DNA from: an uncultured Acidobacteriota bacterium | Lineage (GTDB): Bacteria > Acidobacteriota > Polarisedimenticolia > J045 | Reading direction: 5' to 3' | Length of the DNA: 64,000 nt | Assembly: GCA_963702425.1 (NCBI GenBank) | Contig: CAVPCQ010000038.1 | Location: forward strand, 4,992-68,991 | Shown: positions 42,001 to 45,000 of the stretch, in pieces | How positions within the stretch are numbered: the stretch's first letter is position 1 | Layout: the number at the start of each line of letters is the position of its first letter | Position numbers: made by a program

Positions 42001-45000
42001 GCTGGTCGAGCGGCGCAACATTGATCGAGTCGTGGCAGATCGAGACGAACTTGCGGCCGCGCTGGACCACCAGCCGGCGCCGGTCCAGGACGCCGCGGCT
42101 GTTCTCGCCCAGCCGCTCGTCGAGGAAGCTCGCACGGCCCTTGTAATCGACCATCGTGTTCTCGAGCAGCGTGCTCTTATGGGCCAGCGCGTGGTACATC
42201 GCCTCCTGCAGCTTGATGTCGACATCGGTCTTGACGTAGAAGCCCTGCTCGGTGCCGTAGGACGAGCCGTCGCGCCGCAGCCAGACGATGTCGTCCTGCG
42301 CGACCCAGGTCCCCTCGCCCTGGTCGGGGTCGAGCCCGAGCTGGTGGCAGGACCAGGTCGACTTGCCGGTGGCCGTCAGGCCGAACATGAAAACGCCGAA
42401 GGTCTTGAGCTTGCCGGCCTTCGCGTCGCGCGCGCGGACGACCTTCGTCCCGGCGTGCAGGCCCAGCATCCCGCGCTCGTCGGCGCGGTACATTCCCTGG
42501 CGCAGGAACCCCTTCTTGCACTCGCCGGTGTAGTCCGAGCCCATCGCGATGTTGATGTCGTGCTCGGGGAGCGAAAGGATCTGCATCCGGACCGGGTGCT
42601 CTTCCGGGAGGTCGATCATGATGAACTCCGGCCCGGGCCGGCCCGGCCGGACGTCGTTCATCGTGCAGCCCCACATGTAGGCCAGGCGCGCGTTCTTGGG
42701 GTCGGCGACCGAGACGTAGAGGTTGCAGATCGGGTTGAACTCGGGGTTGTCCCCCATCTGCCGCCGGACGTGGACGAACGGCAGCGTCCGGATCAGCTGC
42801 AGCACCTTGTGCAGTTGGTCGGGCGAGCGCTCGGCCAGCTGGAGCTGGAGCTTGCTGGCCCGCGGCAGCCAGACCCCGGAGCTGCCGAGGAAGAGCGTCC
42901 GTGCCGCCATCCGCGAGGAGATCGCCGAGTACCAGACGTGCGAGCCGTCGGCGGTCCGCCGGGCGAAGGGGAGGGCCATCCGCCGCAGCTGGCGCATCGA
43001 GACGTGCCGGATGTTCGGGCCGTCGAGGCTGCTCCTCAGGTTGTCGGCGAATCGCCTGTAGACATCGGGATCGTACGGGCCGCTTGCCATGCAAGGACCT
43101 CTCGGGACAGCGGGCGGGAATCGGATGTTAGTCGGTCGGGAGCGCCGAGGGCAAGCGAAGCCGGGCCCGGTTGTAGTCCCCCGCCGATTGTCCTATGGTG
43201 GTTCCCCCTACCCAGCACGGACTCGGAGGAGTCCATGCCCCTCACCTGGATCCTGGTCGGCGCGGCCGGCGTCGTCATCGCCACGGCCGCCGCGGCCGCT
43301 TTCTATCGCTACAGGAACTACCGGAAGGCGGGCCCGAACCAGGTGCTCGTCATCTCCGGGCGTCCGTCGACCCTGACGGACGCCGAGGGACGGACCCGAA
43401 CGGTCGGCTACCGGCTCCAGATCGGCGGCGGCACCTTCGTGCGGCCGCTGGCGGAGACGGTGGACGTCCTGCCGCTCGAGGTCTTCTCGATCTCGGTGAA
43501 GGCGCCGGACGTCATCACCTCGCAGGGGGTGCTGATCTCGGCCGACGCCCAGGCGCAGGTCAAGGTCTCCTCCGAGGAGGGGGACCTGCACCGCGCGGTC
43601 GAGAACTTCCTGTCCCGCGGCGCGTCCGGCATCACCTACGTCGCGCAGGAGGTCCTGGAAGGGCACCTGCGCTCGGTGCTGGGCGGGATGACGGTCGAGG
43701 AGATCTACACCGGGCGCGAGGAGGTCGCGGAGCGCCTGCGCCGGCAGGCCGATCCGGACTTCCGGCGGCTGGGGCTGGAGCTGGTCTCGTTCTCGCTCAA
43801 GGACGTGGCCGACGCGCAGGGCTACATCGCCGCGATCGGCGCGCGCCGCCTCGCGGAGATCAAGCGCGACGCGGCGATCGTCCAGGCCGAGACCGAGCGC
43901 GACGCGGCGATCAACGCCGCCGAGGCCCGCAAGGAAGGGGACGTGGCGCGGCTGCGCGCCGAGGCCGAGCTGGCCGAGGCGACGCGCGACTTCGAGATGC
44001 GGCGGGCCGACTACCAGGCCGACGTCAACACGAAGCGGGCGCACGCGGACCTGGCCTACGACCTCGAGCGCGCGAAGGGCGAGCTGGTCCTGCGGCAGGA
44101 GGAGTACCGCGTCCGGCTGACCGAGAAGGAGCTGGCGGCCAAGGTCGAGCAGGCCGAGGTCGTGCGCCGCGAGCAGGAGCTGGAGGCGAACGTCAAGCGG
44201 CCGGCCGAGGCGATGCAGTTCCAGGCCCGGCTGGAGGCGGAGACCGAGGCCTACCGGAAGGAGCTGGAGGCCAAGGGGCGCGCCGCCGGCGTGCGGCTGG
44301 AGGGGGCCTCGCAGGCCGAGGCGATCGCGGCGAAGGGGAAGGCGGAAGCCGACGCGATGCGTCAGAAGGCCGAGTCGTGGAAGCAGTACAACGACGCCGC
44401 GCTGGCCGAGATGATCGTGAAGGTGCTGCCCGAGCTGGCGAAGAACATCGCCGAGCCGCTCTCCAAGGTGGAGAAGATCATCATGGTCGGCGACGACGCC
44501 GGCGTGCCGAAGATCACCGGGCAGGTGGCCCAGGTCGTCGCGCAGCTGCCGACCGTCGTCGAGGCGCTCACCGGCCTCAAGCTCGCGACCTGATCAAAAA
44601 GAAGACGTAGGGGCCGGCCTCTGTGCCGGCCCGAGGAATGCCGGCCTCTGTGCCGGCCCGAGGAATGCCGGCCTCTGTGCCGGCCCGAAACCTCGTGCGG
44701 GCCGGCACAGAGGCCGGCCCCTACCGGCGGCCGAGCGATACGGGGGCCGCCCGCGTGGATGACCGATGCTGACGGAACGCGTCAACCGGATTGCCCTGTC
44801 GCCGACGCTCAAGCTCTCCCAGCGCGCGGCGAAGATGAAGGCCCAGGGGGTCGACGTCGTCGACTTCACGATCGGCGAGCCCGACTTCCCGTCGCCCGAG
44901 GCGGCGAAGCAGGCGGCCAAGGCCGCGCTCGACGCCAACTTCACCAAGTACGTCCACCCCGACGGGATCCTCGAGCTGCGCCAGGCGATCGGCGAGAAGC

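Follow-up and report, generated by a model that had tools for sequence, protein, structure and literature searches.

GTAG-type REP hairpins in an uncultured high-GC Acidobacteriota lineage and a REP-flanked RAYT gene that probably services them in trans

Results

We analyzed a stretch of 64,000 nt (referred to here as the window) from an uncultured Acidobacteriota bacterium (GenBank assembly GCA_963702425.1, contig CAVPCQ010000038.1, positions 4,992 to 68,991). Its GC content is 70-76%, and short GC-rich palindromes, several of them headed by the tetranucleotide GTAG, recur between its genes. These repeats very probably represent a GTAG-type family of repetitive extragenic palindromes (REPs) of a high-GC Acidobacteriota clade, spread by a REP-associated tyrosine transposase (RAYT) which would be encoded outside the window and would service the copies in trans.

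Repeat unit and arrangement of the copies

The unit, GTAG-GGGCCGGC-CTCYGT-GCCGGCCC-G, is 27 nt in length and has an 8-bp GC stem, a 6-nt loop and a 3' G; the stem and loop are as described in an earlier reading of the sequence (the first-pass annotation). A search of the window with the 22-nt core pattern GGGCCGGCCTCYGTGCCGGCCC, allowing up to 3 mismatches, yielded 8 matches against 0.01 expected, a number that none of 100 dinucleotide shuffles reached. A covariance model (R1), built on 60 distinct REP copies from related genomes, detected 4 complete, GTAG-headed copies (22093-22123 and 44605-44635 on the plus strand, 35770-35800 and 44696-44726 on the minus strand; 49-53 bits, E about 1e-10) and 4 partial ones (35681-35711, 44640-44657 and 44667-44684 on the plus strand, 35728-35751 on the minus strand; 24-34 bits), below which there was only noise. 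Every copy reported in the first-pass annotation is present, within 1-2 nt of the coordinates given there. An exact GTAG head is found in 4 of the 8 copies, the remaining 4 being tandem duplicates or degenerate copies:

22095-22121, plus strand: complete single REP with GTAG head and loop CTCCGT (R1 50.1 bits, E 7e-10)
35683-35709, plus strand: degenerate REP with head GAAG, 2 core mismatches and loop CTTCGT (R1 30.9 bits, E 3e-5)
35729-35755, minus strand: inverted REP with a perfect core and head GGTC, not GTAG (R1 34 bits)
35772-35798, minus strand: complete inverted REP with the CTAC end (minus-strand GTAG) (R1 52.8 bits, E 2e-10)
44607-44633, plus strand: complete GTAG-headed REP (R1 49.1 bits)
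44640-44687, plus strand: two headless REP copies (AATGCCGGCC..., 6-bp stem) (R1 24.1 bits each)
44698-44724, minus strand: complete inverted REP with the CTAC end (R1 51.6 bits)

The single copy at 22.1 kb is predicted to form an RNA hairpin of -19.5 kcal/mol. Both clusters, at 35.7 and 44.6 kb, are head-out (HH) dimers with extra tandem units. In the former, the REP at 35683-35709 is the left arm of the dimer, and the two inverted REPs stem from a tandem duplication of 43 nt comprising spacer and REP, in which that at 35729-35755 is the inner copy (Tandem Repeats Finder, TRF, 35701-35794: period 43, 2.2 copies, 94% matches). In the latter, the REP at 44607-44633 forms the left arm of a dimer resembling a REPIN (a doublet of inverted REPs) and pairs with that at 44698-44724 into a perfect 27-bp long hairpin, with a predicted single-stranded DNA fold of -59 kcal/mol (z -9.6); the two headless copies (AATGCC...) are tandem duplicates of the 27-nt unit GCCGGCCTCTGTGCCGGCCCGAGGAAT (TRF, 44613-44688: period 27, 2.8 copies, 100% matches). 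The partial copies of the window are thus products of local tandem duplication. The description of these clusters as GTAG-headed has to be narrowed: among the forward tandem copies at 44.6 kb it fits the first, copies 2 and 3 being the headless 27-nt duplicates, and at 35.7 kb it fits the outermost copy only, the others carrying GAAG and GGTC. A CRISPR-like array or a known RNA was also considered for these repeats and was rejected, given the period of 27 nt, the 6-nt "spacers", the identical units and the lack of any Rfam match (0 matches in a scan of the whole window at the gathering threshold).

Gene context and the terminator hypothesis

Analysis of open reading frames (ORFs) and of GC content at third codon positions (GC3) placed all window copies in intergenic regions, as had been proposed, at a density of 3 REP loci and 2 loci with decayed relics (see below) per 64 kb. 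The genes on either side of the 22.1-kb copy are both on the minus strand; the copy lies 172 nt past the stop codon of the previous one (22295) and 23 nt ahead of the start codon of the next (ATG at 22071). For the 35.7-kb cluster, the distance from the preceding stop codon, that of the minus-strand gene 35806-37683, is 8 nt, and the gene next in line is also on the minus strand. The 44.6-kb cluster separates a flotillin/Band_7 gene from a gene for a 775-aa aminotransferase, both on the plus strand (Pfam labels taken from the sister contig L102, which is 97% identical to the window); it begins 14 nt after the flotillin/Band_7 stop codon (44593), and 42 nt separate its last REP, 44698-44724, from the start codon of the aminotransferase gene (44766). 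The copies were said to lie immediately 3' of genes, which is true of the two clusters but not of the 22.1-kb copy, adjacent as it is to a start codon.

A terminator scan called no REP copy between 35.0 and 45.5 kb, and no T-run lies behind any REP stem (the following sequences are GAGGAAT, GAAACC, GTCCGG and CTAC...). Because no T-run follows any copy, we rejected canonical intrinsic (Rho-independent) termination, and the suggestion that the repeats are relics acting as terminators is not supported as far as this mechanism is concerned. The 35.7- and 44.6-kb clusters are very stable as RNA folds (-90 and -98 kcal/mol, respectively), and this stability, combined with their post-stop position, means that they may have a role at the mRNA level, as has been proposed for REPs generally (PMC3733652).

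Distribution of the REP in related genomes

When one genome per species was searched for the exact 22-mer, at least 100 blocks of 8 kb contained a match. Among the matches listed, 64 of 100 blocks belong to five Acidobacteriota/Thermoanaerobaculia metagenome-assembled genomes (MAGs) of 72-74% GC (MFD02979, MFD00032, Prado002, binchicken_co245_196 and SMAG_U14494), which hold at least 134 REP copies in these 64 blocks; the richest source among the matches listed is MFD02979, with at least 56 copies in 21 blocks. Two MAGs labeled "delta proteobacterium" contribute 16 of the listed blocks, and many phyla 1-2 each. In the "delta proteobacterium" MAGs MFD03399 and MFD09222 (L022, L041, L043, L058 and other blocks) the REP is always single and lies inside a longer conserved unit, with the flanks CCTACATTGG-GTAG... 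and ...G-TGCTCTCAAAAC.

Comparison of the 134 acidobacterial copies revealed strong conservation of the GTAG head (G93 T88 A93 G96, % per base) and of the G after the stem (position +23, kept in 97%), the flanks being unconserved. Stem position 7 and its partner switch jointly from G:C to C:G in 13% of these copies, and both stem variants of the family are covered by the pattern GTAGGGGCCG[GC]CCTCYGTG[GC]CGGCCC. Base pairing in the stem is 99.6% complete across the 60-copy alignment, with double (compensatory) changes at 5 of the 8 pairs, a level reached by none of 500 shuffles, with no slid register coming close, although this test is somewhat biased, as the copies were chosen for similarity to the palindrome. 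T10, G13 and T14 of the loop CTCYGT are invariant.

Adjacent copies in the loci compared are oriented head-out in 47 cases vs 18 tail-tail (TT) cases, with a modal spacer of 20-21 nt, and many of the pairs combine both stem variants, distinguished by position 7 of the stem, into a heterodimer. At three loci of related MAGs (L080 865-920, L003 4709-4765 and L050 3233-3285) a second, headless hairpin lies 5-7 nt beyond a complete GTAG-headed REP. The occurrence of such hairpins at independent loci, as in the 27-nt array of the window, may reflect a recurrent process rather than a single slippage event.

This distribution bears directly on the idea that the repeats are not a mobile family, but regulatory hairpins or protein-binding sites that evolved locally and convergently in a genome of 72% GC. 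GC-rich palindromes do form easily at such a composition, and tandem copies arise by slippage. However, 26-27-mers that are identical even in the loop and the unpaired head are present at unrelated loci (against the expectation of 0.01), and the same sequence is found in many genomes, among them contigs of only 43-50% GC. Considering the enrichment in the window, the dispersal in relatives and the conserved GTAG head, local convergence is effectively refuted and can be given next to no credence.

A RAYT gene flanked by the same REP

When E. coli RayT (K-12 record) was searched against all ORFs of the 100 REP blocks, two ORFs matched, and a RAYT profile hidden Markov model run against the same ORFs found a RAYT in blocks L053 and L033 only. 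As just 2 of 100 REP blocks contain a RAYT, most REP copies are located far from the gene, as expected. In L053 (1885-2376; MAG MFD00032) the gene has an array of six REPs on each side. Its product matches Pfam Y1_Tnp (PF01797) with 27.2 bits (cut-off 23); among NCBIfam models it scores by far the best with REP_Tyr_transpos (NF047646; 73.2 bits, E 1.9e-20), compared with 22.8 bits for the IS200 model (cut-off 55). In the alignment with E. coli RayT, the HUH motif (PDHLH, H59/H61), W94-Q95 (WQR), I103-R104 and N119-P120 are invariant, and a Tyr equivalent to E. coli Y115 is kept in 8 of the 9 aligned RAYT sequences. A PDB search with the acidobacterial RAYT gave marginal matches only, the best of which was ISDra2 TnpA, with 4ER8 (E 0.011) also among them. 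One close homologue, P0001 (L107 3387-3881), has His at the position of the catalytic Tyr (REHIRTNP vs REYIRTNP) and may be an inactivated copy or the product of a sequencing error.

A protein search identified six 164-aa homologues of this RAYT (71-79% identity), which bear the JGI name "REP element-mobilizing transposase RayT". In all seven contigs of this RAYT clade (L053 and L103-L108; 71-100% identical) the RAYT gene is bordered on either side by the REP under study and ends in a stop codon that is the TAG of a GTAG head. In one direction the next gene encodes a Tricorn protease; in the other follow genes for BNR_2, MlaE, an ABC ATPase and MlaD. The order Tricorn-RAYT-BNR_2-MlaE is the same wherever the flanks are covered (L053, L103 and L107, and one side each of L104 and L108), and the flanking proteins are 78-95% identical, compared with 71-79% for the RAYT itself. 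To judge from this gene order, which indicates a fixed chromosomal position of the RAYT, the locus fits the picture of RAYTs as domesticated, vertically inherited enzymes (PMC5581495, PMC6006769).

Specificity of the REP and its occurrence across phyla

RAYTs of 35-48% identity are flanked by other GTAG hairpins (GTAGTGGCCGCCCCGAGTGGCGGCCAG; GTAGGGGCGAAT...; GTAGGGGACGCAAACCTTGCGTCCCC; GTAGGGAACGACCTTGTGTCGTTCCG), and even those of 45-48% identity, which belong to the same protein clade, are accompanied by clearly different REPs. As a negative control we used 80 further RAYT loci from a metagenome scan, which had been confirmed against E. coli RayT and so are mostly distant (≤40% identical); this REP was present at 0 of the 80. 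Because diverged RAYTs carry other REPs and none of the 80 distant loci carries this one, the REP and this RAYT clade are, on sequence grounds, cognate to each other, in line with the co-evolution model.

There is one exception. In L033 (881-1411), a locus of the Chloroflexia MAG MFD02923 (48% GC), a RAYT only 36% identical nevertheless has the identical REP on both sides. This gene also contains a REP copy in frame, which encodes GPAQRPAPT and falls in the variable segment that follows the HUH motif. The identical 26-27-nt REP occurs, in addition, under the taxonomic labels Berkiella/Berkiellales (43% GC), Myxococcales (43%), Omnitrophica, Elusimicrobia and Bacillota, as well as in the two "delta proteobacterium" MAGs. 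Simple vertical conservation is an unlikely cause of this sharing, because RAYTs that are 45-48% identical within the same clade already have different REPs. A tentative, and still rather doubtful, proposal is that the REP moves horizontally across phyla, with or without its RAYT, or that one and the same hairpin has come to be used by unrelated RAYTs.

In distant phyla, the 27-mer also occurs in 8-kb blocks that contain no RAYT, which could be taken to mean that the repeats are miniature elements mobilized by another transposase, of the IS110 family or an IS200/IS605 TnpA/TnpB, and that their association with the RAYT is incidental; indeed, an IS110-family gene (DEDD_Tnp_IS110) adjoins the RAYT gene and its REP arrays (the REPtron) in L106. 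We consider this highly improbable. The IS110 gene is found in only 1 of the 7 REPtron contigs, whereas every member of the RAYT clade is REP-flanked and diverged RAYTs, except that of L033, go with diverged REPs. Moreover, the repeats have no terminal inverted repeats (TIRs) beyond the hairpins themselves and no target-site duplications, and an unpaired 5' GTAG is the hallmark of RAYT systems (PMC3733652, PMC8266576).

Decayed copies and differences between strains

Apart from the eight copies described above, the window contains three sequences that we interpret as decayed relics of the same REP:

49941-49970, plus strand: decayed relic with ~5 substitutions and a 1-nt deletion (R1 14.4 bits, E 0.25)
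57626-57646, minus strand: decayed relic (...GGGGGCACAGAGGCGGCCTAC) with the far stem arm truncated (R1 8.4 bits, loop region only)
57684-57710, minus strand: decayed relic (CGGGCCGGCACGGAGGCGGGTTTCTAC) with one stem arm degraded and CTAC kept (R1 12.2 bits, E 0.8)

The first of these, absent from the first-pass annotation, is flanked by genes of divergent orientation. Sister contig L102 has a perfect GTAG REP (L102 3084-3105) at the orthologous site, and the sequence at 49941-49970 is therefore a decayed relic. The 57.6-kb locus had been described as a degenerate relative of the unit; it is made up of two decayed inverted copies, both with the CTAC end retained. Its two matches are not significant by themselves (E 0.8 at 57684-57710 and 6.4 at 57626-57646), and their status as relics rests on context: they are credible because the corresponding intergenic gap of the MAG Prado002 (L019), syntenic in this region at 84-91% identity, contains an intact REP (L019 5796-5817). 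A small minus-strand ORF (57582-58061) reads through both decayed REPs and stops at 57582, and the orthologous ORF of Prado002 (L019 about 5790-5900) apparently stops at the TAG of the GTAG head of the intact REP; decay of the REPs may have lengthened the C-terminus of this protein.

A second difference between the two strains concerns the 27-nt array at 44.6 kb, which has 3 units in the window vs 4 in L102, although L102 is possibly a long-read assembly, and small indels relative to the window should be read cautiously.

A candidate RAYT outside the window

Neither phmmer searches with the E. coli and acidobacterial RAYTs nor tblastn with four RAYTs gave a match in the window, which confirms the earlier statement that it contains no RAYT gene. 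The Tricorn-like gene of the window (29006-32404) was examined as a possible counterpart of the syntenic RAYT neighbor and was rejected, being a 34% paralogue only. The assembly from which L102 originates (ERZ25039459) also contains the RAYT contig L108. A protein 94% identical to the L108 RAYT (P0060) is encoded on a 744,869-bp contig, and a phosphoenolpyruvate carboxykinase (PEPCK) 97% identical to that of the window over 252 aa on a 3,269,294-bp contig, both putatively of MAG MFD02979. The use of the loop variant as a lineage marker tying L108 to the window was not conclusive, the small counts being inflated by tandem duplicates. With a RAYT contig in the sister assembly and a 94%-identical protein in a close relative, there is every likelihood that the source genome encodes the cognate RAYT, and the copies of the window are most likely serviced in trans, one of the two possibilities raised in the first-pass annotation.

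An alternative is that the repeats are fossils, spread by an ancestral RAYT that has since been lost or inactivated, and now persist as neutral relics or as exapted hairpins (stabilizing mRNA 3' ends, acting as U-tract-independent barriers to transcription, or binding proteins). The lack of a RAYT in the window would agree with this, as would the 4 of 8 copies that are headless or degenerate, the decay at two more sites, the position of the 35.7- and 44.6-kb clusters 8-14 nt past stop codons with RNA folds of -90/-98 kcal/mol, and the His at the catalytic position of P0001; REPs without a RAYT are, moreover, known (PMC6006769). We nevertheless regard it as improbable. For the four perfect copies, a young age is suggested by their intact sequence and by the 100% complementarity of the two outer 44.6-kb copies across 27 nt. 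An apparently intact RAYT, with HUH motif and Tyr, is present in a close relative and in the metagenome of the sister strain. In addition, the absence of a T-tail after any copy argues against canonical intrinsic terminators, and the 22.1-kb copy is found beside a start codon, the 49.9-kb relic between divergent genes.

Other features of the window

A 168-nt element is present in two copies, 99% identical (33529-33696 and 55684-55851), with ~40-nt terminal inverted repeats (CTAGTGTCACGTAACCGAAGTCA...). It looks like a miniature inverted-repeat transposable element (MITE), and it had no match in the loci compared. The segment 52806-55865, which ends at the second MITE-like copy, comprises about 3 kb in the window vs 26 nt in L102, and contains a gene of roughly 890 aa with seven 153-nt coding repeats (53554-54558, motif W..G.EMIVWGG). 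A 56-nt inverted repeat (32543-32598 / 32728-32783, 89% complementary, with the internal direct sub-repeat ACAGAGGACCCCCTCGAATGCACA) is located in the gap upstream of the Tricorn-like gene, and one of its arms has a weak 37-nt match in L080.

In the 775-aa product of the aminotransferase gene (44766-47093, plus strand), Pfam families cover the aminotransferase part only; the C-terminal half, of roughly 380 aa, has a P-loop-like GMPGSGRTG motif and no family on record. ARAGORN predicted a 97-nt tRNA-Val(GAC) at 34443-34539 (minus strand), which is probably a false positive, because it lies inside a long coding region supported by GC3 (33917-35794).

Discussion

The window and its relatives contain a dispersed repeat family of defined structure, linked to one RAYT clade and differing between closely related strains. 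The multi-copy dispersal, the conserved GTAG and compensated stem, and the REP-flanked Y1 HUH gene in seven contigs of relatives bear out the initial interpretation of these sequences as REPs and RAYT substrates.

The way in which the copies spread can be proposed by analogy with the systems of E. coli, Stenotrophomonas and Marinomonas, from which catalysis and mobility are inferred, and for which recognition of the hairpin and GTAG by the RAYT has been described (PMC3333891, PMC3479197, PMC8266576). The top strand of the REP would fold into a hairpin on single-stranded DNA, and a monomeric HUH/Tyr (Y1) endonuclease, the RAYT (TnpA-REP), would recognize hairpin, loop and 5' GTAG, cleave beside the element and rejoin the DNA, such that REPs or head-out doublets (REPINs) would be copied to new intergenic sites. 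The enzyme would be the product of a domesticated, probably single-copy gene within REP arrays, outside the 64-kb window. Tandem duplication or slippage after insertion would then generate the headless units and the 27- and 43-nt periods, and decay by point mutation the relics at 49.9 and 57.6 kb.

Several observations weigh against mobilization by a RAYT acting in trans. (i) There is no RAYT within the window, and that of the source genome was inferred, not observed directly; the assignment of P0060 and PEPCK to MFD02979 is likewise indirect, not by accession, and E. coli strains are known that have lost the RAYT but kept their REPs (PMC6006769). (ii) The score of the L053 RAYT (73.2 bits) is below the NF047646 equivalog cut-off of 80. 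(iii) Half of the window copies are without a GTAG head, and such copies should, by analogy, be poor RAYT substrates. (iv) The loop CTCTGT predominates in the window and the sister strain, whereas CTCCGT flanks the candidate RAYT in L108. (v) The two differences between strains can be explained by slippage, decay or long-read assembly error, not transposition, and no clean pair of insertion and empty site was found.

The repeats closely resemble the GTAG REP super-family, which comprises 24 families and for which TAG stop-codon donation, HH dimers and REPtrons have been described (Di Nocera, De Gregorio & Rocco 2013, PMC3733652). Common to both are an unpaired 5' GTAG at a GC-rich stem of 6-9 bp, with the head in about 90% of copies; compensatory stem sub-families; HH dimers with 20-100-nt spacers and frequent heterodimers; clusters formed through tandem reiteration of the unit plus flanking DNA; an intergenic location, mostly between co-directional genes; and use of the TAG of the head as a stop codon, here by the RAYT and Tricorn genes of the relatives. 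The 6-nt loop (CTCYGT) is a difference, since most described families have loops of 2-3 nt. In the 2013 survey, Acidobacteria had only TIR-flanked Y1 transposases (TIRYTs) and no GTAG REPtrons (PMC3733652), and the exact REP sequence was found neither in the text or supplements of that study nor by a literature search.

With the Pseudomonas REPIN-RAYT systems (Bertels & Rainey 2011, PMC3116915) and the group-3 REPtrons (PMC8266576) the present system shares short perfect palindromes, two inverted REPs that can fold into one long hairpin, a RAYT flanked by its own REPs, co-variation of REP and RAYT, and conserved RAYT synteny, which suggests vertical inheritance. Group-3 RAYTs (Stenotrophomonas, Marinomonas; Corneloup et al. 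2021, PMC8266576) act on perfect palindromes, and the acidobacterial enzyme resembles them in having an N-terminal extension and lacking the roughly 40-residue C-terminal tail of E. coli RayT. The presence of the identical REP in other phyla is, in contrast, unusual for REPINs, which are reported as vertically inherited.

The system of E. coli, in which RayT (TnpA-REP, PDB 4ER8; PMC3333891, PMC3479197) is associated with REPs in bacterial interspersed mosaic elements (BIMEs), has in common with ours the HUH/Tyr Y1 signature, the GTAG head, REPs on both sides of the gene and clusters of alternating orientation. E. coli REPs are, however, longer and imperfect palindromes with a bulge needed for recognition, and E. 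coli RayT is only about 24-26% identical to the acidobacterial RAYT, the similarity to 4ER8 being marginal (E 0.011). IS200/IS605 TnpA belongs to the same enzyme superfamily (PF01797) and likewise recognizes a hairpin and a 5' guide tetranucleotide on single-stranded DNA. Unlike IS200/IS605 elements, the REPs are 27-nt units with no transposase between paired ends, and the RAYT gene, probably not multi-copy, has a fixed syntenic position and scores far below the cut-off of the IS200 model (22.8 vs 55).

These results extend GTAG REP/RAYT (REPtron) systems to an uncultured, high-GC lineage of Acidobacteriota. What is new is modest, namely the conserved 6-nt loop, the lineage itself and the same 27-mer in several phyla. 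For genome annotation, the REP hairpins are of practical use in that they create spurious ORF ends (the TAG of the head terminates several false ORFs in the window), can supply real stop codons and mark intergenic boundaries, and since unit number and decay differ between strains that are 97% identical, the REPs may be used as strain markers. With its perfect palindrome and an invariant loop of 6 nt, the REP also forms, together with the 164-aa RAYT, a clean substrate/enzyme pair for studying how group-3-like RAYTs read the loop. The current understanding of REPs is unchanged by these findings, and the sharing of an identical unit across phyla is the sole point meriting dedicated follow-up; if true, cross-phylum movement or recruitment would contradict the view of REPIN-RAYT systems as strictly vertically inherited.

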